Origin: Chiloscyllium plagiosum
Lineage: Eukaryota
DNA length: 64,000 nt
Assembly (NCBI RefSeq): GCF_004010195.1
Contig: NC_057753.1
Location: 8,641,182-8,705,181, forward strand
Direction of reading: 5' to 3'
Shown here one piece after another: positions 630 through 41,837 of this stretch. The translations under genes and the position numbers were made by a program. Numbering within the stretch: position 1 is the first letter of the stretch; each line of letters opens with the position of its first letter. Below the pieces are notes generated by a model that made no database searches, was not told the origin of the DNA, and saw only the letters and a program-made list of their open reading frames with translations.

Positions 630-3466
630 GGATAGAGCAGGTATAGGAATGGTTGCAGCAGGTTCCAGGATATAGACGTTTCAGTAAGAACAGAGAAGTT
701 GGTAAAAGAGGGGTAGGTATGGCATTGTTGGTCAAGAACAGTACTGCAGTTGTAGAAAGAATGCTTTGGGACTCGTCAACTGAGGTAGTATGGGCTGATG
801 TTAGAAACAGGAAAGAAGAGGTCACCCTGTTGGGAGTTTTCTATAGGCATCTGAATATTTCCAGAGATGTAGAGGAAAGGATAGCAAAGATGATTCTCAT
901 TAGGAGTGAGAGAGACAGGAGAGTTGTGATGGGGGACTTCAACTTTCCAAATACTGACTGGGAACACGACAGTACGAGTACTACAGATAGGTCAGTTTTT
1001 GCCCAATGTTTGCAGGAAGGCTTTCTGACACAGTATGTAGACAGACCAACAAGGGGTGAAGCCACATTAGATTTGGTACTGGGTAATGAGACCGGCCAGG
1101 TGTTAGACTTGGAAGTAGGTGAGCACTTTGGTGATAGCGATCACAATTCTGTTATGTTTACTTTAGTGATAGAAAGGGATAGGTGTATACCACTGGGCGA
1201 GAGTTACAGCTGGGGGAAAGACAATTACGATGCGATTAGGTAAGATTTAGGAAGCATAGAATGGGGAAGGAAACTGCAGGGGATGGGCACATTAGAAACG
1301 TGGAGCTTATTCAAGGAAAAACTCCTGAGTGTCCAAGATACGTATGTGTCTGTCAGAGCGCGGGAGCCGTGGATTATGAAGAAAGTGGAATCTCTAGTCA
1401 AGAGGAAGAAGAAGGCTTATGTTAGGATGAGATGTGAAGGCTCAGTTAGGGCGCTTCAGGGTTACAAGGTAGCCAGGAAAGACCTAAAGAGAGAGCTCAG
1501 AAGAGGCGGGGGAGACATGAGAATTTGTTGGCGGATAGGATCAGAGTTAACCCTAAGGCTTTGTATAGGTTTTTAAAGAATAAAAGAATGACGAGAGTAA
1601 GATTAGGACCAATCAAGGATAGTAGTGGGAAGTTGTGTGTGGGGTCAGCAAAGATAGGGGAAGCACGAAATGAATATTTTTCGAAAGTATTCACTCTAGT
1701 AAACGACAGTGTTGTCGAGGAGAATACTGAGATACAGGCTACTAGACTAGGTGGGAGTGAGGATCACAAGGAAGAGGTATTAGAAATCCTGCAGAGTGTG
1801 AATATAGATAAGTCCCCTGGGCCAGATGGGACTCAGAGCTGAAAATGTGTTGCTGGAAAAGCGCAGCAGGTCAGGCAGCATCCAAGAAGCAGGAGAATCG
1901 ACGTTTCGGGCATGAGCCCTCCGTCAGGGATCACAGATGGGATTCATCCTAGTATCCTCTGGAAAGCCAGGGAGGAGATTGCTGAGCCTTTGACATTGAT
2001 CTTTAAATCGTCATTGTCTACAGGAATAGTACCAGAAGACGAGAGGATAGCAAATGTGGTTCCCCTGTTCAAGAAGGGGAGTAGAGACAACCCTGGTAAT
2101 TATAGACCAGTGAGCCTTACTTCAGTTGTTGGTAAAGTGCTGGAAAAGGTTATAAGAGATAGGATTTATAATCATCTAGAAAAGAATAATTTGATTAGGG
2201 ACAGTCAGCACGGTTTTGTGAAGGGCAGGTCGTGCCTCAAAAGCCTTATTGAGTTCTGTGAGAAGGTGACCAAACAGGTAGATGAGAGTAAACCGGTTGA
2301 TGTGGTGTATATGGATTTCAGCAAGGCATTCGATAAGGCTCCCCACCGTAGGCTATTGTACAAAATGCGGAGGAATGGGATTGTGGGAGATACAGCAGTT
2401 TGGATCAGTAATTGGCTTGCTGAAAGAAGACAGAGGGTGGTGGTTGATGGGAAATATTAATCCTGGAGTCCAGTTACTAGTGGTGTACCGCAAGAGTCGG
2501 TGTTGGGTGCACTGATGTTCGTCATTTTATAACCGACCTGGATGAGAGTGTAGAAGGGAGGGTTAGTAAAATTTGCAGATGACACTAAGGTCGGTGGAGT
2601 TGTGGATCCTGGCAAAGGATGTTGTAGGTTACAGAGAGACATAGATAAGCTGCAGAGCTTGGCTGACAGGTGGCAAATGGAGTTTAATGCGGACAAGTGT
2701 GAGATGATTCACTTTGGTTGGAGTAACCGGAATGCAAAGTAATGGGCTAATGGTAAGATTCTTGGTAGTGTAGATGAGAAGAGAGATCTCGGTGTCCAGG
2801 GACACAGATCCTTGAAAGTTGCCACCCAGGTTGACAGGGTCGTTAAGAAGGCATACAGTGTTTTAGCTTTTATTAATAGAGGGATCGAGTTCCGGAACCA
2901 GGAGGTTATGCTGCAGCTGTACAAAGCTCTGGTACAGCCGCACTTGGAGTATTGTGTACAGTTCTGGTCACCACATTATAAGAAGGATGTGGAAGCTTTG
3001 TAAAGGGTGCAGAGGAGATTTACGAGGATGTTGCCTGGTATGGAGGGGAGGTCTTACGAGGAAAGGCTGAGGGACTTGAGGCTGTTTTAGTTGGAGAAGA
3101 AGGTTGAGAGGTGACTTAATAGAGACATATAAGATAACCAGAGGTTAGATAGTGTGAACAGGGAGAGCCTTTTTCCATGTATGGTGATGGTGAGCATGAG
3201 GGGGAATAGCTTTAAATTGAGGGGTGATAGATGTAGGATAGATGTCTGAGGTAGTTCGTTCATTCAGGGAGTAGTAAGGGTATGGAATGCTTTGCCTGCA
3301 ACGGTAGCAGATTCGCCAACTTTAAGTACATTTAAGTCGTCATTGGACAAGAATATGGACGTACATGGAATAGAGTAGGTTCGATGGGCTTCAAATTGGT
3401 TTGACTGGTCGGTGCAAAGTCGAGGGCGGAAAGGCCTGTACTGCGCTGTAATATTCTATTTTCTAT
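624..3466 (+). mobile_element. CR1 LINE ORF2 (APE endonuclease + RT) with 3' UTR, degenerate
   Basis: ORFs 653..1243 (VMGDFNFP, LDLVL, SDHN endonuclease motifs), 1912..2460 (NYRPVSLTS, QHGF, YMDFSKAFDK) and 2812..3003 (HLEYCVQFWSP). Ends in the CR1 3' stem-loop/tail gcctgtactgcgctgtaatattctattttctat. Several stops and frameshifts. Confidence 0.95.
1832..1933 (-). mobile_element. Short Penelope-like terminal-repeat insertion with a hammerhead-like motif, inside CR1
   Basis: Interrupts CR1 DKSPGPDG|IHP and is flanked by cagatggga at 1823-1831 and 1934-1942. Minus strand 1927-1900 reads CTGACGG A GGGC TCAT GCCC GAAAC GTC. Confidence 0.8.
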
Positions 3467-4129
3467 ATCCTTACTCCTCCAGAACAAATGTTGAAACATT
3501 AAAATTGGAGCCTGAAAAATAATTTGCATCTGTAATTCTGACATAAAAAGTGGGGACAGATAAAATCATACATAATACGACGAAGCTTTTTGAGATGGCA
3601 AACCTTACAACCATGGACTTTCTCCACTTCCCAATCTCTGGATCACGCTAATTGTCTCAATTGCGTTGTGTCTTTGTGTCGCAGGCTCCATTGGCTGTTA
3701 GAATGTGTTCGGCGGTCCCAGTATTTAGTCGGAAAATCGGTTTGAATGGGAGATACGACATTAAAATGCAATGAATCAAGACAAACACAGTCCATGTGAA
3801 TGAATTACAACTTTTTTTTACTGCAAAACTTCAGAATGTTATATGCAAAATACAGAAAGCATTTTTGAGAGAGCTCAGCTTCAATAAATTGTTGTAATAC
3901 ATCGTGCCATTTTCTCAGTACAGAATTTTGTTTTCGGCCTCTGACAAGATATATTCATTGACTTATCCAATGTGAAGGCAACAATCATACAGGAAGAAGA
4001 ATCTATGAGTGCACATATTAGTGCAATACAGACCAATGCGATTTGCAGGAAAATGAATGGGAAATAAATACCGGTAGTTATATTTAATACCTCAGTGGTA
4101 ATGATGAGAGGGACATTTGTTACTGCCAT
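3466..4129 (-). pseudogene. GPR139/GPR142-like GPCR pseudogene (TM2 to start of TM7)
   Basis: Minus strand reads MAVTNVPLIITTEVLNITTGIYFP..DSSSCMIVAFTLDKSMNISCQRPKTKFCTEKMA and later *RDPEIGKWRKSMVVRFAISKSFVVLCMILSVPTFYVRITDANYFSGSNFNVSTFVLEE*G, collinear with the two intact paralogues. It has in-frame stops and is cut by a CR1 at 3466 and a Penelope fragment at about 4129. Confidence 0.88.
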
Positions 4130-4502
4130 GAAACGACACAACCAGCTATCCTTAGTAGCAACACACGCAGATGACAAGCAACATAAATTCGACTTTGACA
4201 ACACTACTATTATAGGATAAGCAAAACAGAGAACAGCCAGGGAATTCCTAGAGGCATGGCACTTATCCACAGATTCAATCAATAAGCACATCGACCTGGA
4301 CCCAATATACCGACCACTGTAACGGACAGCTGGAACTGACAACCGGAAGCGGCAGATTCAAACCACTACAAATGCCGGAGGAAAGATCACAGAAGCGCTT
4401 CACAGGAGGCTGCCAAGGACTGAGGATGTCACCTAGACAGGGAACGAAACGGCTGCAACACAAATTCCCAGCTCGGTTAACAGAACCACAAAAACGAGCA
4501 CC
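4129..4502 (+). mobile_element. Penelope-like element 3' fragment (GIY-YIG C-terminus + terminal repeat with hammerhead motif)
   Basis: Encodes HADDKQHKFDFDNTTIIG*AKQRTAREFLEAWH, near-identical to 22715-23075. Motif CTGAGGA T GTCACC..GGGAAC GAAAC GGC at 4420-4453. Confidence 0.85.
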
Positions 4503-5365
4503 CCCGCACAGAACCATGTTGCCTATCGCTGATTATCTCATTCCTTTCTAAATATAATTAGATCCTATCTCTCAGTACCCTCTCCAGCAACTTCCCTGCT
4601 ACCGACGTCAGGCTCACTGGTATGTAGTTACCCGGAATATAGCTACTACCCTTTTTGTACAGGGGGAGAACATGAGCAAATTTCGAGTCCTTCGGCACCT
4701 CACCTGCGTTTAAGAATCAGCTTGAATTTCGGACAGATTTATCGAGGAGGCGACAGAGTCATGACAGAATTGGGGAGTAGATTTCATTGCAATAATACTT
4801 ATAACTCAATTATACCATTAATCATTCATGTATCAGACTGCTTTCTGGCTAGTTCATGTAAGGTATAATCTACATCAATTATTTATTTTTCATTCGTGGG
4901 ATGAGGGCATCGCTGGTATTGTCATCATTGTCAACCATTCCTAATTGCTCTTGTTGCGAGGTACCATCTTGAGACACTGCAATCTATTTGATGTAAGTTG
5001 ATTCAGAATGCCATTACAAACGGGGTTTACATGATCCGGTGACATTGAAGGAAGCGTAAAATATCTGTAAGTCAGAATGTTAAGTGTTTTAGAAGAAACG
5101 TGCAGATACTCCTCATGTACTAATTGTCGTTGCTCTTGGTGATGCAAGTACTCATGATACATTGTAGCACAACACGTCAGCCAGCTTCTGAGTAGGAGGA
5201 GAATCGATGCTTCGGGCATAAACCCATCATCACTTTAAATGTAGAGATACCGAGGAAATTTGCAACAAAAAGGGAGGTGTGGTACTTACGCAAAGAAAGA
5301 AAGCAAACACAAAGGTGGACAAAACTCTCGACTTTGATCTCTAGCACCTGAAGTCCTCACTTTAG

Positions 5366-7158
5366 TCTTAGAGTCGTACAGTCATAGAGATGTATAGCAC
5401 GGAAACAGACCCTTGGGTCCAATACGTCCATGCCGACGAGATATCCCAAACCAATCTAGTCCCACCTGCCAGCACCCGGTCCATATCGCTCCAAATCTTT
5501 CAATTCATTTACCCATACAAATACCTCTTACATTTTGTAATTGCACAAGCCTCTACCACCTCCTCTGGCAGTTCATTCCATACACGTACCACCCTCTAAG
5601 TGAAACCGTTACCCCTTAGGTCTCTTTTATGTCTTTCCACTCTCACCCTAAATCTCTGCCCTGTCGTTCTGGACTTCCCGACAACAGGGAAAAGACTTTG
5701 TCTATTTACCCTATCCATGCTCCCCATAATTTTGTCAACCTCTATAAGGTCATCCTTCCGCCTCCGATGTTCCAGGGAAAGCAGCCCTAGCCTGTTCAGC
5801 CTCACCCTGTAGCTCAAATCCTCCAAACTTGGCAACATCCTTGTCAATCTTTTATGAACCCTTTCAAATTTCTCAAAATCTTTCCGATAGAAAGGAGACC
5901 AGATTTGTACGCAGTATTCCAACAGTGGCCTAACCTCTGAAAGTTGCCACCCAGGTAAATAGTGCGGTGAGGAAGGCATATGGCGTACTGGCTTTTATTG
6001 GTAGAGGAATTGAGTTCCGGAGTCCTGAGGTCATGATGCAGTTGTATAAGACTCTGGTACGGCCGCATCTGGAATATTGTGTGCAGTTTTGGTCGCCATA
6101 CTATAGGAAGGATGTGGAGGCATTGGAACGGGTGCAGAGGAGGTTTACCAGGATGTTGCCTGGTATGAAAGGAAAATCGTATGAGGAAAGACTGAGGCAC
6201 TTGGGGCTGTTTTCACTAGAGAAAAGAAGGTTTAGGGGTGACTTGATTGAGGTGTACAAGATGATTAGGGGGTTAGATAGGGTCGACAGTATGAACCTTT
6301 TCCCGCGTATTGAGTCGGGTATTACAAGGGGGCATAGCTTTAAATTAAGGGGGGGTAGATATAGGACTGATGTTAGGGGTAGGTTCTTCACTCAGCGAGT
6401 CGTTAGTTCATGGAATGCCCTGCCAGTAACAGTGGTGGACTCTCCCTCTTTATGGGCATTTAAGAGGGCATTGGATAGGTATATGGAGGATAGTGGGTTA
6501 GTGTAGTTTAGGTGGGCTTGGATCGGCGCAACATCGAGGGCCCAAGGGCCTGTACTGCGCTGTATTCTTCTATGTTCTATGTTCTATGTTCAATGTCCTG
6601 TACAGCCGCTAAATGACCTCCCAACTTCTGTACTCAATACTCTGACTAATAAAGAAAAGCATACCAAACGCCTTGTTCACTATCCCATCTACCTGCGACT
6701 ACACTTTCAAGGAGCTATGAACCTGCACTCCAAGGTCTCTTTGTTGAACAACACGCCCTAAGTGTATACGTCCTGCCAAGATTTGCTTTCCCAAAATGCA
6801 GCACATCACATTTATCTGAATTAAACTCCATCTGCCACTTCTCACCCCATTGGCCCATCTGGTCAAGATCCTGTTGTAATCTGAGGTAACCCTCTTTGCT
6901 GTCCACTACACCTCCGACTTTGGTGTCGTCTGCAAACTTACTAACTGTCCCTCTTGTGCTTGCATCCAAATCATTTCTGTCAATGATAAAAAGTTGAAGA
7001 CCCAGCACTGACCCTTGTGGTCTCCACTGGTCACAGGCCTCCAGTCTGAAAAACAACCCTCCACCACCACCCTCTGTCTTCTACTTTTGAGCCAGTTCTG
7101 TATCTAATTAGCCAGTTATCCATGTGTTCCGTGAGATCGAACCTTGCTAACCAGCCTT
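5366..7158 (-). mobile_element. CR1 3' part (RT C-terminus and 3' UTR), interrupted by a younger plus-strand CR1
   Basis: ORFs 5596..5979 (LEYCVQIWSPF) and 6715..7056 (PQGSVLG, KFADDTK). Tail repeat agagtcgtacagtcatagaga at about 5370. Confidence 0.88.
5935..6590 (+). mobile_element. Nested 5'-truncated CR1 with an intact reading frame to the stop and a (TTCTATG)n tail
   Basis: ORF 5967..6506 is uninterrupted (RPHLEYCVQFWSPYYRKD ... FFTQRVVSSWNALP). Tail ttctatgttctatgttctatg at about 6568-6590. Confidence 0.92.
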
Positions 7159-7870
7159 GTTAACCTATGGAGAGTATCTTGCAAATGGTGAGTGCGGATT
7201 TTGTAGAGCAATAGTTGCAGCAGGTGTGGATGTTTCTGGAGCTCGTGCCAATCATTTTGACTGCATGGTCCTGGATTGTCTCAAGCTTCTTGAGCATAAT
7301 TGAAGCTTCAGTTGGCAAGTGGAGAGCATTCCATCACACATCTGATGTGTTTCGTACATTTAATGATCATATTTTGGGGATTTATGACTTGGTGGTGGTG
7401 AACATATTTTGGTGAGTCAGGAGGTGAGAGTTTCCCTGCAATATTCCTAGCCCCACTCCTACCCTTCTAACCAAGGTATTTATCTTGCCAGGTCCGTTCT
7501 GTGGAGTATACGACAAGTGAAGTCTTACTGCAAATTAAAAAGTTCTGGTGAGCCCATATCTGAAGCACCTTGAGCAGTTTTGCTCATTTATTTAACAGAA
7601 GATGTTATTCCATCAGACGGATTTCAGAGAAGTTTCACTTGGATGATTCCTAGAAGAGTTGACTTATGAGCAAGTGTCAAACAGATTGGGATCTGACTCA
7701 TTGGAATTCAGCATAATGAGGGATGATCTTGCTGAAACATGTAGGATTCTTAAGTCGCCCGACAGGATCAATGATCAGAGGATGTTTCCGTCAAGAGTGA
7801 ATCTAAGATCGAAGGGTGCATACTCAGGATTCAGGAGGGCAATTTAAGACTGAGATAAGAAGGAATTCGA

Positions 7871-8230: not shown

Positions 8231-8332
8231 ATTTTTCAACAGGGCTGTGAGTCGTCAGAAATGTTTGCCACAGAGTACTGTGGACAAAGTCATTGGGTAT
8301 CATTATTTTTGAGATAGATCTACCCTTTATCA

Positions 8333-11363: not shown

Positions 11364-11369
11364 TTTATT
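11364..11369 (-). terminator. Candidate polyadenylation signal (AATAAA) of gene A
   Basis: tttatt on the plus strand about 40 nt beyond the stop codon. Confidence 0.35.
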
Positions 11370-11409: not shown

Positions 11410-12299
11410 TTATTTAAATAATTTCAAGGGATGCAACAATATATTTTGTAACTCTTCTCTAAATTTTCTTTGCGTCACCACATAAATAAATGTGTTTGTG
11501 CAGCAACTCAACAACTGAAGCATGTTTGCAATTTCTCGCAATATAAATTTGGGGTCATTGAAGCTGCTAATGTTGTTATTATTTGTAAAGCGGTCATAGA
11601 AGAATTGAGCCACATACGTCATCCATAAGAGCATGAAGCTACCTGAAATAGTGAAAAGTAACACAATAGACTTTCTCCGACTCTCCATCTCTGGATCACT
11701 GTGACCATCTTTATCCTCTTGTGCCCGGAGTCGTTTGCGGGCTCTACTAGACATTAATATATGCTTGACTGTCAGAACATTCAGTGAAAGAATCAAGAAA
11801 AACGACAGGCAAGGGGTGAAAATACGATCAGACCAATCAAATACCGTCCACAAAAGTGAAGTATAGCGGATATCTTTCAGTTTGCAATACCAAGGGATAT
11901 TATTAATAACATAGATGGGCTCATGAATAAAATACCATGGAACACTTTTCAAACATCCTAGTGCAGACACTATTCCAATAATCACAACTGTAGTTTTATC
12001 GGTGAAATACTTTCTTTTCAGCTTCTGGATACAAATGGCCAGAAATCGATCAAATGTGAAAGCAACAGTTAACCATACAGAGCTGTCTCTTGAAGCATGA
12101 ATAAAGGCAATGTTGAGACTACACACATGCGTAATATACAGAAAACTTCCTGGAAAGTATATACCAGGAATACGGTTTATTATTACTGCAGTAATAATGA
12201 CGAGGAGATCAGTCACGGCCATGGAGATGAGATATTGGGTAATACATTGGGAAAGACCACAATGTCTTCGGGACAAGATCACAATAGCCACTACGTTAA
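11410..12299 (-). CDS. GPR139/GPR142-like class A GPCR, gene A, coding exon 2
   Basis: Open frame with 7TM hallmarks: MAVTDLL (TM2), TFDRFLAIC (DRY-like), PWYC (ECL2 Cys), DPEMESRRKS (ICL3), CCTNTFIY (TM7). Acceptor ttcttgcag at 12300, phase 1, stop at 11410. Confidence 0.93.
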
Positions 12300-13530
12300 C
12301 TGCAAGAAACATAGAGAGGTAAGTTGTAGAATGTGTCAACAGAAGTAATATATTGATGGTGATTCTATCACGTTCTAATCTGTAGTGTTTGAACTGACAC
12401 GAGTTAAATTAGTGCAAAACTCTCAGTTGGACAAACAATTTAAATGATTAGCCAACAAATACCTTTCAATAAATCGGAATTTTGAATGTGCAAACTATGT
12501 GATTTTTATAATTACATTGTAAAACGTAGACAAAACTGCAATGTATTCAACTTGAAAGCTAAAGAAAACAAAACGAAAAGAGTACAAAGGAAAATGTCAC
12601 AAATTAAACAAAGTCCAAAATAAGTTAAGAATAATTATTGCAGTTCATGGAATACATTGAGGAGTATTACTATCAGTGTAAACTTGAGCGTCTTAGGAAA
12701 AAGAAATGACAAGTTCTTCACGTTTACAGACACATAGACCAGCCTGTTGCAGTAGGCCACCATAGACTAGTATGGTTCCACAAACTGCAGAGAGTGAGAT
12801 TTACTCTTGGCCTGGAATGTTATCATGAGGTCTGAAAAGAACAATTATAAAACCCATGAAGAATTGCAGACGTTAGGCAACGCAATTATTAATTTCCTCC
12901 ATGTTATGCAACCTGTACATTGATTATCAACATCTCATGTATGAAGCAATAATATAGTTTTTCCTTGAAAATAAATGTTCAATCGAATGTCTTGATCAGG
13001 CGTTTGATGTTGCAAGTGATATTTGAGTTCAGAGTTACAATTTGGAACAACAAGAACATAGAACTGCGTAAAGATTAGAAAACTGGGCAAAGAGGGTTTC
13101 AACTGATGACAACGATTGTACTATCATTTTTAAAGAAGTCAACTTCATAAATGCACGTCTATTGTTCAACTAAGCGAAGGGGTTCAATGCGTAATTTTGT
13201 GAAAAACAGACTCAAATTAAAATATTCATCGAATCCATTACAGAGGGAATGATAGCATGAGTGAACAACAGCGATTCAGACTTTTCGTTAATGGATGATT
13301 TATGTTTCATGATATTGCAGCAGTCAAAATAATTAAATCGTGCCATTTATGATTTGAGTCATCTGGTAAATTATGAAATCTTCAACAGATCACTTTGTCT
13401 TTACATTGCACTCAATTATCGACCGAAAGACTTCGCAGTGTTTTTCTTTTTTCAGTACTAATGAAAAAATAGCAAAACAAAAACGGTCATGCTAGACCTC
13501 CCCCGAACTAACTTGATCAATTAAGATGAG

Positions 13531-13818
13531 GAGGTGCTAGTGTTGGACTGGGGGGGCGGGGACAAAGTTAAAACAAAAATACAGCAACAGGTTATAGTCC
13601 AACAGGTTTATTTCGACGTACTAGATTTCAGTACCTTCGTCAGGTAGCTAGTGGGCCAGGATCATAATACACGGAATTTATGTATCAGTTGCTTGGCAGT
13701 ATGATCATTTGCTATAAATTCTATGTCTTCTGATCCTGCCCCATTAGCTACCTGACGAAGGAGCAGGTAGCTTCTAAATAAACCGGTTGGACTATAACTT
13801 GGGGTTGTTCAATTAAAA
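13531..13818. mobile_element. Penelope-derived fold-back element with hammerhead remnants, in the intron of gene A
   Basis: Inverted arms: gttatagtccaacaggtttattt..ccttcgtcaggtagcta vs tagctacctgacgaagg..aaataaaccggttggactataac. Shares gtgttggactgggg with the 17518 element. Confidence 0.75.
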
Positions 13819-14810
13819 CAAGGTTGTATTATATTTATCTCCTAGTTTTCATGTTCCTTACAACACCTGTCGAACAGAAATACATCAAAGCGATTGTTGT
13901 CATTTTTAGTTGACACCAAGCCTGTTATTTTTTGCATGGGGTGTAATCTGAGAAATAGGGCCTGACAGTTCAGGATAGATATGAGGACACACTTCTACAG
14001 ACAAAAGGTCGTAATGATTTGGAACTCTCTTCCAATAATGGTAAATGTTAATTGATGAGAGATCAATTGTTCATTTTAATGCTGAGGTAGTTCCATTTCA
14101 GTATAACAAAGTTAGTTAAGGATCTGAGTCTAACGCAGCTATACTTTATTCAGGCACAGATCAGCCATGATTTCACTGAATGATAGAATAACGTAATGGG
14201 GTTGAAATGGCTTACTCCTGTTCCTATGTTCCCGTATTTGGAATTTACCCACATATTACAAATCGTATCTTAAGAAGAAAAAGTCAAGATGGCCAAACTT
14301 GAATTATTTGTTTATGCTGCACTATTCTCGCTCGGTCAACAGTAGACAATCTAATCTCATGCAACTTAACACATTTTTTCATCATCTCCTTCCCCTCTTC
14401 ACAAATCACGTTCCTTGTTGACACGTTACTGTGACATCATTTCAGGGTGAGGTGAGCGAGTAAGTAACCAGAAACATCTTGTGTGGCAGTGGGATGAATC
14501 TGCACTCTCACATTGTGCCAGTGGATCTAACCGATCCCCATTGATAAAAGCATTTTGTAATCATTTTTACTCTGCAATACTAATTGCATTCATCTAATCT
14601 TTCCTGAACACATAAGATCTGTTGTTATTGCACTAAATAATCCTCTGTAAATGACATCCGCATTTCTTGCCCTGACGCTCAACTTCCCTTTCCAGCCAGC
14701 ACTTTGTCATGTATGTTAGCCAGGCCAAAAAACATCTCAAACAGAAACGTGACATGAAAAACTGTAAGAAACGGAGCAGTAAATATCATTAATTTGTTGC
14801 ATCAAAATAC

Positions 14811-14880
14811 CTGGAACAGCGATAGCTGCAAGTGCAGTGTAGTAAATGGCATATGCCAAACCTGTTGGTGGGGCATGCAT
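14811..14880 (-). CDS. GPR139/GPR142-like GPCR gene A, coding exon 1 (MHAPPTGLAYAIYYTALAAIAVP + G)
   Basis: 70-nt exon from ATG to CCAG|gtattt. Phase 1 matches exon 2, giving ..AVP-V-NVVAIVILSR. Same length and similar sequence to gene B exon 1. Spliced product 319 aa. Confidence 0.88.
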
Positions 14881-22231: not shown

Positions 22232-25200
22232 GGTCATTGAGTCATTGAAATGTACAGCATGGAAACAGACCCTTCGGTCCAACCAGTCCATGCTGGCCAG
22301 ATATATCAACAAAATCTAGTCCCACCTGCCAGTACACGGCCCATATACCTCCAAACCCTTCCTATTCATATACCCATCCAAATGCCTTTTAAATGTTGCG
22401 ATTGTACCCAGCCTCCATCACTTCCACGGGCAGCTCATTCCATACACGTATCACCCTCTTTTTGAAAAGATTGCCCCTTAGGTCACTTTTATACCTTTCC
22501 CCTCTCACCCTAAACCTATGTTCTGGACTCCCCGACCCCAGAGAAAATACTTTGTCTAATTATCCTATGCATGCCCCTCATAATTTTGTAAACCTCTATT
22601 AGCTCACCCCTCAGTCTCCGATGCTCCAGGGAAAAAAAAACCCAACCTGTTCAGCCTCCCTGCAGAGCTCAAATACTCCAACCCTGGCAACATACTTGTA
22701 AATCATCCTTGTGTCGTTTCGTGACCAGCTATCCTTAGCAGCCATACACGCAGATGACAAGCAACATGAGTTCAACTGGGACAACACTTCTATTATAGGA
22801 CAAGCCAAACAGAGAACAGCCAAGGAATTCCTAGAAGCATGGCACTCATCCACTGATTCTATCAACAAATACATCGACCTGGATCCAATATACCAGCCAC
22901 TGCAGTGGACAGTTGGAACTGACAACCGGAAGCGGCAGAGACAAACCACTGTAAATGCCGGAGGAAACATCACAGAAGCTCTTCACAGGAGGCTCCCAAG
23001 CACTGAGGATGTCACCTAGACCAGGGAAGAAACGTCTGCAACACAAATTCCCAGCTTGGTGAACAGAACCACAACATCCTGTACAGCCGCAACATGACAT
23101 CCCAACTCCTATCCTCAATATTCTGACCAATAACAGAAAGCATACCAAACGCCTTCTTCACTGACCTATCTACCTGCGATTCTACTTTCAAGGAGCTATG
23201 AATTTGCACTGAGAGGTCTCTTTGTTCACCAACACTTTCTAGGACCTTACCATTAAATGTATAAGGCCTGATAAGATTTGCTTTCTCAAAATGCAGCACC
23301 TCACATTTACCTGAATTAAACTCCATCTGCCACTTCTCGGCCCATTGGCCCATCTCATCAATATCCTGTTGTAATCTAAGGTAACGTTCTTTGCTGTCGA
23401 CTACACCTCCAATTGTGGTGTCATCTGCAAACTTACTATCTATACTTCTTATGCTTGCATCCAAATCATTTAGATAAATGTCAAACAGTAGAGGACCCAG
23501 CACCGATATTTGTGGCACTCCACTGGTCACAGGCTTCCAGTCTGAAAAATAACCCTCCACCACCACTCTCTGTCTTCTACCTTTGAGCTCGTTCTGTATC
23601 CAAATAGCAAGATCTCCCTGTATTCCGTGAGATCTAACCTTGCTAACCACTCTCCCATGGGGAGCCTTGTCGAACGCCTTACTGAAGTCCATATAGATCA
23701 CATCTACCGCTCTGCCCTCATCAATCCTCTTTGTTACTTCTTCAAAAAACTCAATAAAGTTTATGAGACATGACTTCCCACGCACAAAGCCATGTTGACT
23801 TCCCCAATCAGTCATTGCCTTTCCAAATACAAGTACATCCTTTCCATCAGGATTCTCTTCAACAACTTGCCCACCACCGATGTCAGGATCACTGGTCTAT
23901 AGTTCCCTTACTACCCTTCTTAAAGAGTGGCACTACGTTGGCCAACATCCAGTATTCCATCATCTCACCTGTGACTATCGATGATACAAATATCTCAGCA
24001 AGAGGCCAAGCAATCAATTCCCTAGCTTCCCACAAGAGTTCCCGGGTACACCTGATCAGGTCCTTGTGATATATTCATCTTTATGAGTTTCAAGACATCC
24101 AGCACTTTCTCCACTGTAATATAGTCGCTTTGCAAGGTGTCACCATCTATTTCGCTAATTTCTATATCTTCCATATCCTTTTCAACAGTAAATACTGATG
24201 CGAAATCGATCGTTTCGTATCTCCCCCACTTTCTGCGGCTCCACACAAAGGCCACCTTGGTGATCTTTGAGGGGCCCTAGTTCTCCATAGTAACCCTTTT
24301 GTCCTTAATTTATTTGTTAAAATCCGTTGGAATCTCCTTAATTGTATGTGCCAAAGTTGTTTCTTGTCTCCTTTTTGCCCATCTGATTTCCCTCTTAAGT
24401 ATACTCCTACTATCTTTATACTTTTCTAAGGATTCACTCGATCTATCCTGTCTATACCTTACATATGATTCCTTCGTTTTCTTAATCAAACCCTCAAACT
24501 CTTTAGTCATCTAGCATTCCCTATACCTACAAGCCTTTCCTTTCACCTTAACGGGAATATACTTTCTCTGGATTCTCGTTATCTCATTTCTGAAGGCTTT
24601 CCATTTTCCAGCTGTCCCTTTACCTGCAAACATCTGCGCCCAATCAGCTTTTGAAAGTTCTTGTCTCATACCGTCAAAATTGGCCTTTCTCCAATTTAGA
24701 ACTTCAACTTTTAGATCTGGTCTATCCTTTTCCATTACTATTTTAAATCTAATGAAATTACTGTCACTGGCCCCAATGTGCTTCCCCACTGACACCTCAG
24801 TCACCTGCCCTGCCTTATTTCCCAAGAATAGGTCAAGTTTTGCACCTTCACTAGTCGGTATATCCACATACTGGATCAGAAAATTCTCTTGTACACACTT
24901 AACAAATTCCTCTCCATATAAACCCTTACCAATATGGCAGTCCCAGTCTATGTTTGGAAAGTTAAAATCCCCTACCATAACCACTCTATTATTCTTACAC
25001 ATAGCTGAGATTTCTTTACAAATTTGTTTCTCAATTTCCCTCTGACTAATTGGCGGTCTATCGTAGAGTCCCAATAAAGTGATCGTCCCTTTCTTATTTC
25101 TCAGTTCCACACAAATAACTTCCCTAGATGTATTTCTGTGAATATCCTCACTCAACACAGCTGTAATGCTATCCCTTATCAGAAACACAACTTCCCCATC

Positions 25201-26750
25201 TCTTTTGCCTCCCTTTCTATCCTTCCAGTAGCATTTGTATCTTGGAACATTAAGCTGCCAGTCCTGCCCATCCCTGAGCCATGTCTCTGTAACTGCTATA
25301 ATAGCCCACTCCCATGTTCCTAACCGTGCCCTGAGTTCATCTGCCGTCCCTGTTAGGCCTCTTGTATTGAAATAAATGCAGTTTAATTTATTAGTCATAC
25401 ATTGTCCCTACCTGCCCTGACTGTTTGACTCGCTTCTGTTCTCAACTGTACCAGTCACAGATTGATCTCTTTCCTCACTATCTCCCTGGGTCCCACCCCC
25501 ACCTTACTAGTTTAATTCCTCCCGAGCAGTTCTAGCAAATTTTCCTGCCAGTATATTAATCCCCTTCCAATTTATGTGTAAACCGTACTTCTTGTACAGG
25601 TTACGATATCCCAAAGGAGATTACCACATTCCAAAAATGTGAATCCTTCTCCCATAAGCCAGCTCCTCAGCCATGCATTCATCTGCTCTATCTTTCTATT
25701 CCTGCCCTCACTAACTCGTAGCCCCGGGAATAATCCAGATAACACTACACTCAGGGAACTCCTTTTTAAATTTCTGCTTAACTCTCTGTAATCTCCCTTC
25801 GGAATCGCAACCTTTTCCCTTCCTATGTCGTTGGTTCCAATGTGGACAGTGACCTCTTGCTGGCCCCTCTCCCCCTTGAGAACATTCTGCACCCTCTCTG
25901 AGACATTCTAGATCCTGACGTTCTGATTTTTCGCTGCTGGCCACAGAAACGTCGGTCTGTACCTCGGACTGGAGAGTCCCCGAGCACAATTGATCTATTG
26001 GAACCCGATGTACCCCTCGTTGCATTTTTAGAACCAGCCTCAATACCAGAAACTTGGCTGTTAGTGCTGCGTTCCCCAGAGAATCCATCACCCCCTACAT
26101 TTTCCAAAACAGCATACTTATTTGAAATGGGTATAGCCACAGAAGGCTCCTGCACTAGCTGCCTACCTCTCTTACCTTTCCTGGAGTTAACCCATCTATG
26201 TGACTGTATCTGAGACATTCCCCTTTTCCTATATCTTCCATCCATCAAATACTGTTGCTGTTGAAAATTCCTCGTTGCTTCTAACGGTCTCTCCAACCGA
26301 TTCATTTGTTCTGATAATATTCGCAACCAGCAGCATTTATTGCAGATATAATCCGCAGTAACCCTTAAACTCTCTTTAATCTCCCACATCTGACAAGAAG
26401 CGAATATCACTCTACTAAAGGCCATTTTTGCTCCTTCCCAATCTAGAGACACAGAAAATATTCCAGTCTTATTCGTTTACAAAACACTGTCCCAGGTTAA
26501 CTTAATAGTTATGGCTTATATTTTAAGTTTAATCAAGAGAAATATCTCAAAAAACATATAATCAAGAAAGAAGCCACTCAGCTCACTAATGCAGAATTTC
26601 TGTAGGTCGCACTTAAAAGCAATACACTTATTTGTTTCCCTGCTGTGAAATTCATCGAAGCAGTTCCTCCAAGATCAATTGTGAATTTCCCTGTCTGTTA
26701 ATTTTCCCAGACGGACTCCGATGTCCAGCAATAAATGAATTCAAACAGCG
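22232..26750 (-). mobile_element. Near full-length CR1 (5' UTR, ORF1 Zn-finger/esterase, ORF2 APE-RT, 3' tail), degenerate
   Basis: ORF1 pieces 25823..26452 (DYICNKCCWL, VLGDSPVRGTDRRFC) and 25572..25892 (HIGTNDI). ORF2 pieces 24511..25398 (APE: VTETW, GDFNFP) and 23012..23815 (RT). Tail gtcattgagtcattga. Confidence 0.92.
22715..23075 (+). mobile_element. Penelope-like 3' fragment with hammerhead motif, nested in CR1
   Basis: ORF 22711..23019 (HEFNWDNTSIIGQAKQRTAKEFLEAWHS). gca CTGAGGA T GTCACC..GAAAC GTC tgc at 23000-23039. Confidence 0.87.
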
Positions 26751-34393: not shown

Positions 34394-34921
34394 CGCCTTC
34401 CTGCGTCACCTTGGAGCTGCCCAATCTCTACCTTTGCCTCTCGTTTGTTTCTTATGTATTGAAAGAAACTTTTACTATCATTCCTAATATTACTGGCTAT
34501 CTTATCTTCACATTTTATCTATCTCCTTCCTTACTTATCTCTTTATTATCCTCCGTTTATTTTTGTAGTCTTCCCAATCTTCTGATTTCCCAGTGCTTTT
34601 GGCCACTTTATATGCGCTGTCTTTTTCTGTGATACATTTCCTGGCCACTTTTATAGACTCTCTCTTTTTTCTGTGATATATTTCGTGAGTTCCTTCATCA
34701 GCCATGGTTATCTAATTCACCCCACCACCCTTCCAGTCCCGGGTAATCTTTCTTTTGTTTGGGATGTACCTCTGTACTGTATCCTCAATTACACCCAGAA
34801 ATTCCTGCTCTACTGTCTTCCCCACTAGACTCTGCTTCCGGTCGATTTTCATCAGTTCCTCTCTCATGCCCCTGTAATTACCTTTATTTAACTGTAGCAC
34901 CATTACATCCAAGTTTTTCTT

Positions 34922-35500
34922 TTAAAGTTTGTGCGAAGATTTGTAGCTCGGGTGCTCGTTGTTGTGGTTCTGTTCGCCGAGCTGGAAGTTTTTGTTGCAA
35001 ACGTTTCGTCCCCTGGCTAGGCAACATCATCAGTGCTTGGGAGCCTCCTGCGAAACGCTTATTTGATGTTTCCTCCGGTGTTTATAGTGGTCTGTCCCTG
35101 CCGCTTCCGATTGTCAGTTTCAGCTGTTCGCTGTAGTGGTTGGTATATTGGGTCCAGGTCGATGTGTTTGTTGATGGAGTTTGTAGATGAATGCCATGCC
35201 TCTAGGAATTCCCTGGCTGTTCTCTGTCTGGCTTGCCCTATGATAGTAGTGTTGTCCCAGTCGAATTCATGTTGCTTGTTGTCTGCGTGTGTGGCTACTA
35301 AGGATAGCTGGTCGTGTCGTTTCGTGGCTAGATGATGTTCATGTATGTGGATTGTTAGCTATCTTCCTGTTTGTCCTATATAGTGTTTTGTGCAGTCCTT
35401 GCATGGTGTTTTGTACACTACATTAGTTTTGCTCATGTTGGGTATCGGGTCCTTCGTTCTGGTGAGTTGTTGTCTGAGCGTGGCTGTTGGCTTGTGTTCT
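34922..35500 (-). mobile_element. Penelope-like 3' fragment (GIY-YIG + terminal repeat with hammerhead), nested in CR1
   Basis: ORF 35359..35868 fuses CR1 APE to HKPTATLRQQLTRTKDPIP..NVVYKTPCKDCTKHYIGQTGR. Hammerhead on the minus strand at 35036-34997. Confidence 0.88.
34997..35036 (-). ncRNA. Minimal type I hammerhead ribozyme motif (Penelope type)
   Basis: GCA CUGAUGA U GUUGCC UAGCCA GGGGAC GAAAC GUU UGC: full core, stem I GCA/UGC, stem II with one mismatch, and an NUH cleavage triplet GUU. Confidence 0.7.
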
Positions 35501-38403
35501 TTTTCTTTTCTTTTCTTTTCTCTTTCGAACTGCAGACTGAACTCTACCATATTATGATTGCTGCCTCCTGAGTGTTCCCTGACTTTAAGATCTTTTATAA
35601 AGTCTGGCTCGTTACATAGTACTGTGTTCAGAATACCCTGCCCCCTTACGGGCTCCATCACATGCTGTTCCAAAAAGCCATCCTGTAAGCATTGCACGAA
35701 TTCACTTTCTTTGGATCCATCGGCAACATAACTCACCCAGCCCATTTGCATATTGAAGTCCCTTATGATCATCGTGACTTTACCTTTTTGACATGCCCTA
35801 TTTATTTCCTGGTACATCTTGCACCCCTGATCCTGACCACTGCTGGGATGTCTGTACATAATTCCCATTTTTTTTGCTTTTGTGATTCTTCACCTCCACT
35901 CACCCCGACTCCATATCATCTGATCTTATGTCATTTCGTGCCATAGATTTAATTTCATTTTTAACTAACAGGGCAACCCTTGCAATCTGCCCACCTGTCT
36001 GTTTTTTTCGATGAGTTTCAAATCCTTGAATGTTTAATTGCCAGTCCTGAACTCCCTGAAACTACGTCTCTGTGATGCCTACCACAGCATAATCATTTAC
36101 GATGATTCGTGCTGTTAATTCATCTACTTTGTTCCGAATGTTTCGAGCATTCAGGTAAAGCACCTTAATACTAATTTTCTTATCCTGATAATTTCCATAA
36201 TCTCTACCGAAGTTATTCTTCCTTTTTGCTTCATTCCTCGTCTGCCTCGAACTTAAACCCTGCACACATGCTAATCTGCTGCTTGTCTTTCTACTTGGCT
36301 CCATACTCCCTGTTGCTTTCCCATTACCTTTCCCTGACTCGGAAGTTTAAATCCCTGGTGACCACCCTATTTATCATTTTCGCCACGTCACTGGTTCCAG
36401 ATTGGTTCAGGCGGAGTCCGTCCCATTGGTACAGATCGCCCCGGTTCCAAAACTGATGCCAATGTCCCATGGAATGGAAATCCTCTTACCAACACCTATC
36501 TCTTAGTTAAGTGTTTACTTCTCTAATGTTCTTATCCCTATGCCAATAAATGGCTTGGGCAATAATTCAGATATTATGACCCTCGGGGTCCTGTTTTTCA
36601 ATTTCCTTCCTAGTGCTCGATACTCCCCAAACGAGACCTCCTTCCTAGCCTTGCCTATCTTGTTTGTGCCAACGTAGACTACATCAACTGGATCCTCTCC
36701 CTCCCGCTCCAATATCCTTTCAAACTGTTAGGAGATGTCCTGCACCCTGGAACCGGGCAGGCAACACATCAGACTCCCAATCCAGCTCACAAAGAATACT
36801 ATCTGTCCCCCTAATTAGAGAATCCCCAATAACAACTACTTTTTTTTCTCCCCGCTCTTGAATGGCCTTCTGCACCATGGTGCCGTGGTCAGCTGGCTCA
36901 TCCTGTCCACAGCTCTTTTCCTCATGCATACAGGGAGCAAAAAACTCATAACTGTTGGACAAGGTCGAGGGCTGAGACTCCTCCACTCCTGAACTCAGAA
37001 ACACCATACCTGCCTCATTTACAGTCACATCCTGTTGTTCCTGATCACTTGCTGAATTTGAAACTGATAAGAAACTGGCTTCGTAATACGACACGAAGCG
37101 TAGTGATACATGGCTGTTTGAGTGACTGGAGGCCAGTGTCCAGCGGTGCACCATAAGGATCTGTAATAGAACTCTTATTGTTTATTCGATCGATGAAAAT
37201 GTGGGTGAATGTTAAACAAATGTTCACCAAATGGATAGAAAGGGTAACAATGTTGTAGGTTACAGAAATAAGTAAGTGCCAAATGAGCGGACCAGTGCCA
37301 GATGGTATTTAACTCTAATAATTTTGGAAGGCGAAGTAAGATGAGGGAATATTTAATATATGTCAGGATGCAGGTTCGCTTGGGTGAACAGAGGGTTCTC
37401 GGGAATTTCCACACTATAACTAATCTAAAGTAAAAGTTGTTGCTGCGAGTATAAGAGTAGCGATGAAGGACTGTGTGCAGTTCTGGTCGCCTCATGCTGT
37501 ATGAATCTTTGCTACTATGAATCTATGAACAGGACACGTATAAACTAAATATAAGCGCTTTGCAATGGGCGTGTCCACACTGGATATATCCTTAGTGTAA
37601 CTGAATTAGTGCCCTCTGAATATAACTAAGTGGAACTGAGACATATGTCAATGCAATGTTAAATAATGCAGTCTGTGGAAAATTAATTTAAACTATCTCA
37701 GCTCTCCATAACACACTGACTGTAACATTCTTGAAAGTGTACCCTGAGTGGAAATAGCTACTATGAAATGGAATCAAAACGTAAGTATAAAGTAACTGAA
37801 GTGTAAAACTATCTAGTTTCACTCAACGTAACCGTACTGAAAGGCACTAGAGTTCACAGAATATAATGATGCTGAAGATGATCTGGCACTAACAGAATCA
37901 TACCATACTTAAATAACGTTACCTTATTTGAGTGGTGCTACCTCAATTTGAAGTTGTCTCTGTTCAATGCACCGACTGTGAATTAGAGGAATTTACACTG
38001 AATGCAAAGTTAGTACAAGGAAGAAGTAGACTGCACGATTGAGTCGACCTGCCCGGAATTAACATAGCGACAATGAGCTTGGTAATTCAGCATTGAATGC
38101 AGTCATGAAGAGTTGGATCTGTGCACAGCGAAAGGACCCAAACTTCACTGGATCTTTTTCTCCAGTGAAAATATTGTCAGTTTGTTAAATGGGTGAATAA
38201 TTTGAATAGGTGTGGAACAAAAATGCATTTCAATAGTGATCGTATATAAAGTAGATTATCAGGTCTAATTATATGATCTATGGTGTTTCCGTTCTGAAAT
38301 ATGGAAAATGTTATATTTCATCAAAATATAAGCATCCCGCGAATCAGCAGCTGGATTAATCTATTTTTAAAAAGTAAGTAATAATTATACGTGTTCAAAC
38401 CAA

Positions 38404-38421
38404 CTAATTATCTCCCTGGAG
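38404..38421 (+). promoter_or_regulatory. Adjacent homeodomain + O/E(EBF)-like sites upstream of gene B
   Basis: CTAATTA TC TCCCTGGAG, 65-82 bp upstream of ATG 38486. Confidence 0.45.
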
Positions 38422-38485
38422 CCTGAAATAAGGTACAAATGTCAGTAACATCAATTGAATAACGAGATGGTCACACTTCTTAACA

Positions 38486-38555
38486 ATGCATGAAATAGTA
38501 GCAGGTCTGGTGTTCGAAATTTACTATCCAGTCATTGCAGCTATCGGAGTTCCAG
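38486..38555 (+). CDS. GPR139/GPR142-like GPCR gene B, coding exon 1 (MHEIVAGLVFEIYYPVIAAIGVP + G)
   Basis: 70-nt exon ending CCAG|gttagg. IYYPVIAAIGVP(A)N matches the GPR139-family TM1, and phase 1 joins exon 2. Confidence 0.9.
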
Positions 38556-39115
38556 GTTAGGATTTATAAATGTTATTAACTGTCCGAATCGTTGGCGTTA
38601 ACTGCAGAAATTCTCCTATTTTACCAGTGCCACTTGTCCACATTCTGTGCTTATTTTCACTGTTTTAATGAGTTATAATACACTGCTAGCAGGTATAAGG
38701 CAATGTGTTTAATTGGAATAATTTAAATTATTAAATTTCGCATTTTGTCCATTTGGAAGCCGAACCTTGCTGTTGATGTAATTATCGTTCAGTTTTAGCA
38801 TTACAATTTTATCTTTTTCTAACCAATATAGTATACTCATATCAGCGGAGTAACTTTCACATTTAACGGAATGCTAAATTACTACGTCTGGCATAAATTG
38901 ACGGCTCCAATGAAATGTGTTATTCCATTAACCACTAACGGCACATATTTTAATTGTGAGACTATAATTTTACTGTCCATGTCGCTAGTACTAAGTAGTA
39001 TTTCTTTACTGTATTAAGATTTATTTGTGGTTGATTTGACAAGAAAGTAAAACGGCGACATGGCTGGTCTATTTTAGCATTGATACTTATATTGCAGATG
39101 AATTCTCAAACTGTT

Positions 39116-39433
39116 TTAGATTAGATTAGATTACTTACAGTGTGGAAACAGGCCCTTCGGCCCAACAAGTCCACACCGACCCGACGAAGCGTAACCCACC
39201 CATACCCCTACATTTACCCCTTTACCTAACACTACGGGCAATTTAGCATGGCCAATTCACCTGACTTGCACATCTTTGGACTGTGGGAGGAAACCGGAGC
39301 ACCCGGAGGAAACCCACGCAGACACGGGGAGAACGTGCAAACTCCACACAGTCAGTCGCCTGAGGCGGGAATTGAACCCGGGTCTCTGGCGCTGCGAGGC
39401 AGCAGTGCTAACCACTGTGACACCGTGTCGCCC
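39116..39433 (-). mobile_element. tRNA-derived HE1/V-SINE-type SINE in the intron of gene B
   Basis: Reverse complement of the 9193 element, including the (TCTAA)n tail and A/B boxes. tgtt on both flanks. Confidence 0.9.
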
Positions 39434-40926
39434 TGTTATTGTGTTCAAAATAAAACTATGCTGCGTTGACATTATTTTGTCCCCGAGAGAATTAACGTAT
39501 TCCAATAATCATGTAAAAATACATCTATTTTGACATTGATATTTCCAAGTACAGAACAACTTTCAGAAATGTGGCAGCCGATTGATTGAGGTGAGCACTT
39601 AAATAAATGCAGACTGAATTAAATGCATTTATTTATAAGTAAAGTGTTGTTCGTCTCCGAGCTGTGACAGATATGCAAGCAATGTCACAATTGCTCTTTC
39701 ATGAATTGTTAGTATTCTCTACTATCTAACAGTCAACATTTCTGTTCACAATTTATCTAACATTCTCGGTTTGGCTCCATTTTTATTTTAGGAACCTCCT
39801 ACTAAAATTGGCGCCTACTGAGAGTGGGATTTCATTATGTTATTCATGCACAGCAATGTTTTGGACATTTCTCATTCTCCTTATAGTGACCTCAGCATAG
39901 CGTTTATGTAATGTGTTCTGCTTTTCACGTCGAAAAGACAAAGGTTTTATTTCAGTCAGGAAAGAAGATAGAGTTTGCTGGGTAAGCTTTGCAGGTCTCT
40001 TAACATCAGAGTAGAGAAATCAGAGCTAACGTTTCAGATGTGGTGATACTTCCTAGTAACAACTGACGACTTGTGACCGGACCTGAAATCTTTGATTTCT
40101 CTTCAAAGATTCTGCCAGACTTGCTGAGCTTTTCCACAATCTCTATCTTTGTTTCTGATTTACAGCATACGCAGTTCTATCCGTTTTTTTAGTTTTATTT
40201 CACTATCCAACACGTGACATAATCAATCATTTATATTTGGCAACACCACAAACGAATGTAGCATTTTGAAGGCATTTCTTCAATCACAATCGTCATCTGT
40301 CATTTGCAATGGCATAGGGTGTGCACAAAACATCTCACGCGATTTGTACAATATTCTACCATGAAAGGAAAACATCTTCAATAACATGGGAAATTAATTC
40401 TCCAGTCCCTTCCATCTCAATCCCAACCATTTTATGCCAAATAGTTGTGCATCTGTTTCCAATAAGGAATTAATGATACAAAACGTGACGATTAGAAGTT
40501 ACTTTTTTAATCTCAGTGCAATATAATCCGTTCTCCCATTTATTTAAATATATATGGTTAGTTAATAGTCATTTACTCAATCCAAAGTTTTCATTATTTT
40601 ATTGTTGAAGAGGGCTTTTGCTCTACAATTGGTTCTTGAATTAATTTATTTCTTTTCTTCACAACATTTGAACTCGCAGTTAGTTTCGTTTCGGAAGAGA
40701 ATGAGCTCACCTATGTTGACTCTAAATAATTACTTTAAAAATGAAAATAATTACTCCTCGTATCAACTATGACTTCAAATATGGAGTTATGTCATATTTT
40801 CTATGTTCTGCACAGTTCGCTAAAGGGTGGGTTGTATTATAAGGTGTTCAACGTGTAACTTCTCTGATCTCAGTCTTACTAACGTGTAGAATTTGTTAGT
40901 CTTCTTATCTTTTTTTTCTATTGTAG

Positions 40927-41837
40927 CTAACGTGGCAGTGATAGTCATCATGTCTCGAAACAGATGCGGTCTGTCTGGATGTGTCATCTATTACTTGGTG
41001 TCTATGGCAGTGACAGATCTCTTGGTCATTGCCACAGCTGTAATATTAAACCGGATAGCTGGGATGTACTTCCCATTCAGTTTCTTGTCCATTACACCAC
41101 TTTGCAGTTTTCGTTCTGCCTTCAATTATGCAGCTCTTGCCAGTTCTGCCTGGTTGACGGTCACTTTCACCTTTGATCGATTTGTTGCCATCTCTTGCCA
41201 GAACCTGAAATTTAAATATTGCACCGAAAAAATGGCAGCACGTGTTATAACAATTGTATTAGTACTCTCCTGTGTCAAAAATACCTTCACGTATTTTTAT
41301 TACGAACCCATGTACCTATTTCATAATGTTCCCTGGTTCTGCGCCCTAAAAGCAGTATTTTATACATCGCCAGCATGGACTGCATATGACTGGATTCGAT
41401 CAATTTTAACCCCTTGTCTCCCTTTTATTTTGACTTTACTGCTCAATGCTCTGACTATGAGACACATTTCAGCCTCAAATGAAGCCCGTAAAAGACTCTG
41501 GAACCCGAACACAGGAGAAAATCAGAATGACCCAGAAGTGGAGAAGCGCAGAAAGTCTATTGTTTTACTCTTTGCCATCTCAGGCAGTTTCATTCTGTTA
41601 AATTTCTTATGTTTTTTAACAATCCCCTATGTTCGAGTTGCGAATGTGATGTATCCTTCAGGTTCTGATCCGGGCAATTCTATATTTATTCTTCAAGAAA
41701 GTGGATACATGCTCCAGTTATTAAGTTCTTGTGTTAACCCGTTTATTTATGCTGGCACCCAGAGTAAGTTCAGAATGGAGTTGATGAAGAGCATGAAGTA
41801 TCTATTGACCCCATTTATTGGAGTATTCAAATGTTAA
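40927..41837 (+). CDS. GPR139/GPR142-like class A GPCR gene B, coding exon 2
   Basis: Acceptor tttttttctattgtag|CT. Motifs MAVTDLL, TFDRFVAISC, PWFC, TPCLPF, DPEVEKRRKS, CVNPFIY. Stop TAA at 41837. Spliced product 326 aa. Confidence 0.93.

Follow-up and report, generated by a model that had tools for sequence, protein, structure and literature searches.

The receptors grouped around GPR139 and GPR142, within the G-protein coupled receptors (GPCRs), have kinship with protostome peptide receptors (PMC8514136), and close to them lies GPR210, which Rinne et al. 2019 (PMC6504862) named as an orphan of coelacanth, gar and fishes comprising three subtypes. In GPR139 itself the residues F109, H187, W241 and N271 are key for activation by Trp and Phe (PMC5430874). 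For sharks the number of receptors belonging to the OR, ORA and TAAR families has been put at 5-8, V2Rs being dominant (PMC6368271), and a 'relative paucity' of GPCRs has been described (PMC8455134). The word 'shark' is absent from the main text of PMC6504862. The present analysis concerns a window of 64,000 nucleotides from the shark Chiloscyllium plagiosum (contig C44, positions 8641182-8705181), which contains two intact receptor genes, A and B, and one pseudogene. Searches of the 3.56 Gb genome show that these three are members of a family with more than 2,000 copies, which, to judge by profile, intron and trees, is related to GPR139 but is neither GPR139 nor GPR142. They belong to a birth-and-death GPCR repertoire of new ancestry, larger than the initial annotation of the window could see, and likely represent an extensive repertoire, so far undescribed, for sensing outside molecules in animals to which few such sensors have been credited. 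The new elements are a sister gene in amphibians and sturgeon, the rejection of GPR139 membership, a signal of selection and polyadenylated transcripts.

Gene structure, family size and turnover

Gene A is encoded on the minus strand. Its 70-nt first coding exon (14811..14880), with an ATG at 14880, an upstream in-frame stop and a GT donor, specifies a short N-terminus and the first half of transmembrane helix 1 (TM1). A phase-1 intron of 2,511 nt (12300..14810; GT...AG with a pyrimidine tract) separates it from the second coding exon (11410..12299), an open frame running from the remainder of TM1 to the stop, and the spliced protein has 319 amino acids (Pfam 7tm_1, E=7.8e-21). Gene B, on the plus strand, likewise comprises a 70-nt first coding exon (38486..38555) with an ATG, a GT donor and an upstream in-frame stop, which matches the start of the RefSeq homologue P0001, a phase-1 intron of 2,371 nt (38556..40926; GT...AG) and a second coding exon (40927..41837); its protein of 326 amino acids (7tm_1, E=1.9e-20) is 85% identical to a protein of the zebra shark. 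The two genes are arranged head-to-head with a spacing of 23.6 kb, both introns lie within TM1, neither N-terminus bears an N-glycosylation sequon, and the proteins are identical at 175 of 327 aligned columns (53.5%). The pseudogene (3465..4129, minus strand; tblastn E=1e-37) is a remnant of exon 2 extending from TM2 to extracellular loop 3 (ECL3) in two frames, with many indels, frameshifts and stops and 46-49% identity to the family sequence it matches best; the window yielded no exon 1 belonging to it. An acceptor AG occurs at the identical phase-1 position in all 60 family loci fetched by homology, indicating that the two-exon structure is not a product of chance, and the same intron position is seen in the GPR139 and GPR142 genes of this genome.

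A 29-base motif from TM3, with hits in 54 of 59 near loci and in 14 of 18 divergent ones, recovered 2,111 matches in the genome, as against none for the reversed control, and an independent motif from TM7 recovered 1,491 (control 3). Within the stretch covered by both motif listings there are 74 TM7 hits and 100 TM3 hits, and 48 of the former have a partner among the latter, from which capture-recapture gives an estimate of 3,100-3,250 loci, fragments included. The first 60 of the 100 TM3 hits listed, which come from contigs C1-C8, are all family members; judged on exon 2 alone, 24 of them are intact, 27 broken and 9 interrupted by N. Scaled to the genome this amounts to 844 copies with an intact exon 2 (95% interval 582-1,129), or to 1,161 (878-1,433) if the gapped ones are taken as intact; intact main-exon copies likely number roughly 600-1,400 genome-wide, or about a thousand. 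A floor is provided by hand counts of the non-overlapping, near-full-length and stop-free hits listed, which come to about 114 in the search with exon 2 of gene B (130 scored hits among 7,967 candidates, all at least 59% identical) and about 110 in a search with the young clade discussed below; the search with gene A had 133 scored hits among 8,235 candidates. The contiguous 434 kb around the window contain 17 family loci, of which 8 have an intact exon 2, with the 70-nt exon 1 also located for 7 of these, and 9 are broken. Being clustered, with about half of its loci broken, the family turns over by birth and death.

The initial annotation had described two intact, divergently oriented paralogues and a pseudogene, a shared 70-nt first exon followed by a phase-1 TM1 intron of about 2.4-2.5 kb, N-termini lacking a sequon and, by eye, an identity of roughly half to 60%; coordinates, frames, Pfam 7tm_1 matches and alignment all bear this out. 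Its picture of a clustered birth-and-death family, for which it had proposed a copy count in the source genome, also holds: the 2,111 motif matches far exceed one to three copies, and strict one-to-one orthology under purifying selection fails widely, 9 of the 17 loci around the window being broken.

For comparison, the NCD3G domain of the V2R/class C receptors has 61 matches in the same genome, mostly on C13. The family is thus more than ten times the V2R-type count, which overturns the picture of sharks as receptor-poor, whichever tissue uses it; if about a thousand genes are intact, it equals in size the odorant-receptor family of the mouse.

Of 2,647 candidates in a search for homologues, 1,132 proteins reach E<=0.001. 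The named homologues among the top 120 are all from sharks and mostly carry the name 'probable G-protein coupled receptor 139', which is identical to the Atlas name, while other members figure in RefSeq as capa-receptor-like, GPR15-like, FMRFamide-receptor-like or V2-receptor-like. Members were also recovered from stingray, skates, devil ray and Callorhinchus (20 cluster representatives looked up, giving presence and not copy number), so that the family is present in sharks, rays and a chimaera. The RefSeq models called 'probable GPR139' in these animals belong to the same family as genes A and B, and their names are automatic, vary from model to model and misstate the orthology. One gene model of the whale shark, P0049, in which C2H2 zinc fingers are fused to a family receptor, is probably a mis-join of neighbouring clustered genes. 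No published account of these receptors as a family was found in the openly available literature, the supplements of Mayeur 2024 and of the Squalomix preprint being outside this scope. In the portions covered, the main text of Mayeur 2024 (PMC11979771) contains neither 'GPR' nor '139' and does not feature the family, and it is likewise unmentioned in the Squalomix preprint (10.1101/2025.06.08.657570), where the clusters named are SUCNR1, V2R and protocadherin, and in the whale shark paper (PMC8455134); PMC12208981 contains neither 'shark' nor 'paralog', and PMC11886862 none of six terms looked for.

Ancestry and receptor build

The GPR139 of this genome is a single gene on C21 (L152; E=7e-157 to PDB 7vug), and a second single gene on C24 (L151), 56% identical to it, is presumably GPR142, a name assigned by synteny. 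After these two the next hits are family members at 27-32% identity, ahead of other GPCRs, and the relationship is reciprocally the nearest in the genome. A profile built from 16 diverse members places GPR139 at the top among solved structures (E=2e-18; the next at 1e-11); the profile is needed, as gene B used as a lone query on the solved structures recovered no GPR139 chain at E<=0.001. Overall the family is 18-24% identical to GPR139 and GPR142.

A profile search of 1.84 billion representatives, combined with look-ups, recovered closer relatives: these come from salamanders, coelacanth, teleosts and bichirs as well as from amphioxus. Counterparts of the salamander gene make up 19 additional clusters from amphibians, 66-74% identical to it and numbering about one for each species, and a homologue from sturgeon is 46% identical; neither amniotes nor teleosts are represented among the 25 hits of the word-based search concerned. 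In trees of 40 and 27 sequences, with other GPCRs of this genome as outgroups (OR, TAAR and V1R sequences not being among them), the family has the gene of amphibians and sturgeon as its sister, with UFBoot values of 95 and 100, and is nested among genes of coelacanth, fish (teleost, bichir, sturgeon) and amphibians with values of 89 and 93. GPR139 and GPR142 are placed apart from it within a shared wider clade (UFBoot 100), and the placement of amphioxus is weak in both trees (52 and 70). An approximately unbiased (AU) test, with the constrained search run in fast mode, rejected the joining of the family to GPR139/GPR142 (p-AU 0.003). Orthology of the family with GPR139 or GPR142 is ruled out by this result together with the separate single genes on C21 and C24 and a binding pocket that is not kept. 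Of the label 'GPR139/GPR142-like' given by the initial annotation, the kinship stands, on the profile and the intron, while membership falls; the phylogeny it called for, run with GPR139 and GPR142, groups the family with a different lineage.

The sister gene, which appears from the sequences recovered to be single-copy in amphibians and sturgeon, probably belongs to the GPR210 orphan group, as suggested by its taxon pattern and its position in the trees and not by a match of Ensembl identifiers. The shark family nests among coelacanth, fish and amphibian receptors of this putative GPR210 kind and shares their short N-terminus, but differs from them in number, these relatives being low-copy and the shark family having thousands of copies. 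GPR139 (PDB 7vug) is its nearest solved structure by profile, and with GPR139 and GPR142, class A orphans that respond to L-Trp and L-Phe, it shares the phase-1 intron in TM1 and the wider clade, whereas these are single genes without a Cys at the top of TM3 and the family combines this extra Cys with an altered pocket and thousands of copies.

The members are class A (rhodopsin-like) GPCRs, as is evident from the 7tm_1 matches, the motifs and the modelled fold. A DRF motif is present in 87 of 96 members, along with Nxx[IVL]Y motifs, a Cys at the top of TM3 (C3.25) in 88 and a WxC motif in ECL2 in 93. At E<=0.001 genes A and B have no match to the Pfam profiles 7tm_4 (OR), V1R or TAS2R, the matches being 7tm_1 and a sub-cut-off Srx. 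An AlphaFold model of exon 2 of gene B (pLDDT 90.7) shows class A helices and a hairpin in ECL2; in a Foldseek search peptide receptors lead with none outstanding, and a structural comparison places the oxytocin receptor (Z 24.1, rmsd 2.8 over 243 residues) among many ties. GPR139 is not singled out, ranking sixth among scores that are all close and being absent from the 50 best of a second list, so the predicted fold supports class A and nothing finer. The ECL2 hairpin of the model, the TM3 Cys with the ECL2 WxC and the leaders of the fold search point to a peptide-type receptor build.

At the positions F3x33, H5x43, W6x48 and N7x38 of the GPR139 pocket gene A has H/D/W/N, retaining W6x48 and N7x38, and gene B has Y/R/N/Y, retaining none of the four exactly. 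Across 21 members these columns are variable, especially 5x43 and 7x38, with 3x33 being mostly aromatic. The initial annotation had suggested, as one possibility, GPR139/GPR142-like amino-acid sensors; this is not upheld, given the different lineage and the Trp/Phe-binding residues, which are not preserved. Nor is the short N-terminus the sensory sign it was taken for: a short, sequon-free N-terminus was found in 8 of 8 low-copy relatives checked, so this feature is inherited and no sensory mark. In TM6 of gene B an Asn replaces the class A toggle Trp at 6x48, and in a set of 59 loci this column reads W27, Y23 and N7, indicating that one clade has changed the switch.

Selection and transcription in the young clade

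The family includes a young clade of at least 130 copies at 84-91% identity to the locus L147, with about 93 of the 130 hits, by hand count, lying on small unplaced contigs. Allelic twins are rejected as its main source, as the closest pair among 36 young copies is 97.4% identical in DNA and all others are at most 94.5% identical. Flanking DNA is shared between young copies at 80-88% over kilobases. Many core young copies (L099, L129, L137, L138 and L147 among others) have, some nine codons into the intron from the exon 2 acceptor, an ATG in frame that is followed by hydrophobic codons, and this could permit a start independent of exon 1 with a substitute TM1.

Sequence variation in the family is sharply partitioned. 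For 96 members compared, the inner halves of TM3, TM5, TM6 and TM7 show an identity of 0.69-0.78, as opposed to 0.26-0.49 in ECL2, ECL3 and the outer halves and 0.52 in ECL1. In the young clade (36 of 42 copies parsed) 24 columns are highly variable, and 22 of these belong to the loops and the rim. Counting of substitutions in 7 core young copies, chosen by eye, gave dN/dS values of 1.20 for ECL1, 1.52 for ECL2 and 1.97 for ECL3, versus 0.25 for the non-extracellular part. The site model M2a was preferred over M1a with 2dL of 593 and 626 in two runs, with omega around 8.5 at 5-9% of sites, and the 14-15 selected sites all fall within ECL1, ECL2 or the TM6-ECL3-TM7 rim; non-loop columns alone gave a 2dL of 1.6 with omega mostly at 0.2. 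These models are our own implementation, in which branch lengths were only rescaled, and the loop limits were set after the variation had been seen. Four-gamete incompatibility stands at 80-85% at all distances over 21 sites, which suggests gene conversion or homoplasy, and gene conversion can inflate site tests. The extracellular rim is under strong positive selection, as shown for the young clade alone.

Evidence for transcription comes from RNA samples that bear no tissue label and whose reads are not assigned to individual cells. In the single-cell run X5, 221 reads of 12.96 million records fall on the young copy L193, where they form a peak in sense orientation at the 3' end, with loose ends of poly(T) immediately beyond poly(A) signals; they stem from paralogues other than L193, because none is 99% alike. 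A second, antisense peak over the 5' part of exon 2 (L193:2112-2450), also with loose ends, is probably a family fragment inside another transcript. Sample X7 has 66 contigs on the L193 stretch. The last exon of the immunoglobulin J chain attracts 96 reads in X5 (about 7 reads per million) and one spliced contig in X7, which establishes that X7 is RNA and also fixes the strand rule; run X6 is uninformative, having 0 reads on both the L193 and the J-chain stretches. Thus, the young clade is transcribed in two samples, both of which include some antibody-secreting cells, and its transcripts in X5 bear poly(A) tails. The J-chain gene itself (C32:3419380-3426980, L211-L213) has a last exon too divergent for Pfam, which is recognised by its place behind the Pfam-matched exon and is tied to that exon by the spliced RNA contig.

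Possible roles and remaining features of the window

The above observations could be accommodated by the following scenario. A single orphan receptor of early jawed vertebrates, still kept by amphibians and sturgeon, was likely multiplied in cartilaginous fishes by tandem and segmental duplication accompanied by the decay of copies. The conserved inner half might serve one signalling route through a common G protein, and the diversified outer rim would confer different ligands on each receptor, with binding at the surface formed by ECL1, the ECL2 hairpin and the TM6-ECL3-TM7 rim. Because of this rim location and the peptide-receptor build, the ligands are likely peptides or small proteins. It is quite probable that a thousand-gene repertoire of cartilaginous fishes derived from one orphan GPCR constitutes either a seventh vertebrate chemoreceptor family or a GPCR-based system of non-self recognition with hypervariable loops. 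Between these, our tentative preference, held at somewhat less than an even chance, is for a chemosensory repertoire whose receptors would each bind an outside molecule of their own, probably peptidic or a small protein. The family displays the traits of chemoreceptor repertoires, namely large size and clustering with birth-and-death turnover and a diversified ligand face on a conserved signalling face, the positive selection being that of the young clade. In its genome behaviour it resembles OR, TAAR, V1R, V2R and T2R as well as FPR and MRGPR, from which it differs in ancestry. No vertebrate GPCR family of 500 or more genes is known that is not chemosensory.

Several points weigh against the chemosensory interpretation. 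Both usable RNA samples also hold J-chain transcripts and neither is marked as nasal or sensory, and the expression data cover the young clade and not genes A and B. The clade of gene B is without significant positive selection (24 genes, 2dL 5.3, p=0.07), and an omega near 8.5 resembles what is typical of host-parasite conflict more than the values of odorant receptors. Of 10 young copies scanned over 21-26 kb, only 2 gave an exon 1 (22-24 kb upstream in both, and in one of them the 50 codons shown include no Met; for a further young copy a complete exon 1 lies at 3.9 kb). Among the matches listed, no family cluster occurs at the V2R cluster on C13, and family copies lie within about 50-120 kb of immunoglobulin/MHC C1-set genes on C44, C25, C49 and C10, a proximity that is a hint only. 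Some of these observations are in keeping with an innate-immune repertoire, in which the receptors on leukocytes or barrier epithelia would sense microbial or parasite peptides in the manner of FPRs or MRGPRs, at ten to twenty times their number. The restriction of strong selection to the outer rim of the youngest clade, its mRNA in X5 and contigs in X7 alongside J-chain RNA, and the C1-set neighbours speak for it. Nevertheless, about 7 reads per million of J chain do not mark X5 as an organ rich in plasma cells, and the co-location with C1-set genes may reflect only duplication-prone chromosomes; the known immune GPCR expansions are, moreover, much smaller. An immune role is a serious possibility that suits the data nearly as well as a chemosensory one and is in our view only slightly less probable. 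The older clusters, including that of the window, and the young clade may differ in role.

The same peptide-receptor build and fast rim evolution would also suit co-evolution of receptors with endogenous or conspecific signals, such as diversified peptides in reproduction, gamete recognition or pheromones. We consider this unlikely: no expanded ligand family was seen, although none was specifically sought, and no other long non-retroelement ORF was seen in the 434 kb around the window. It is a shade less probable still that most copies have merely been carried along by segmental duplication where chromosomes are unstable, with only a few of them mattering. The broken half of the loci, the flanking DNA shared over kilobases and the four-gamete incompatibility would be expected from such a process, but the two-speed pattern, in which dN/dS is 1.2-2.0 for the loops and 0.25 for everything beyond the extracellular half, already weakens it, as do the omega of mostly 0.2 in non-loop columns and the retention of the family across sharks, rays and a chimaera. 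Least credible, and in our estimation highly improbable, is a role as amino-acid sensors working like GPR139 and GPR142; the best solved-structure match, the shared intron position and the mostly aromatic 3x33 recall these receptors, yet the pocket of gene A and gene B departs from the F/H/W/N of GPR139, the identity is low, an extra Cys caps TM3, and a thousand receptors are not needed for twenty amino acids. If the chemosensory interpretation is true, it would explain how sharks smell with so few known receptors. The identification of the family makes two questions testable, namely on which receptors the chemosensation of sharks is based and whether GPCRs of one family can act as a variable immune repertoire, and the presence of the amphibian sister gene in Xenopus offers a laboratory route to the ancestral ligand.

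Elsewhere in the genome, an ORF of 599 codons (L072:211-2007; C9:94390048-94393398), putatively somatostatin-receptor-like, has a long tandem repeat inserted in the region of ECL2. Within the window, decayed fragments of LINE-type retroelements occur at 647-2457, 23015-25407, 50099-51216 and other positions, and the ORFs 24514-25407 and 23015-23896 have retroelement endonuclease and reverse transcriptase domains by Pfam. The repeat-derived ORFs 55403-55873 and 61062-62060, which have no Pfam match, are presumably Penelope-like, and the fragments 35062-35889 and 55403-55873 contain what we take, again without a Pfam hit, for a GIY-YIG-like motif. A 4-kb low-complexity stretch at 53035-57350, skewed in its purine/pyrimidine content, yields spurious long ORFs. 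Adjoining the 5' end of the pseudogene is an interspersed repeat (4125..4460) that is 85-88% identical to copies at 22724-23043 and 34993-35328.

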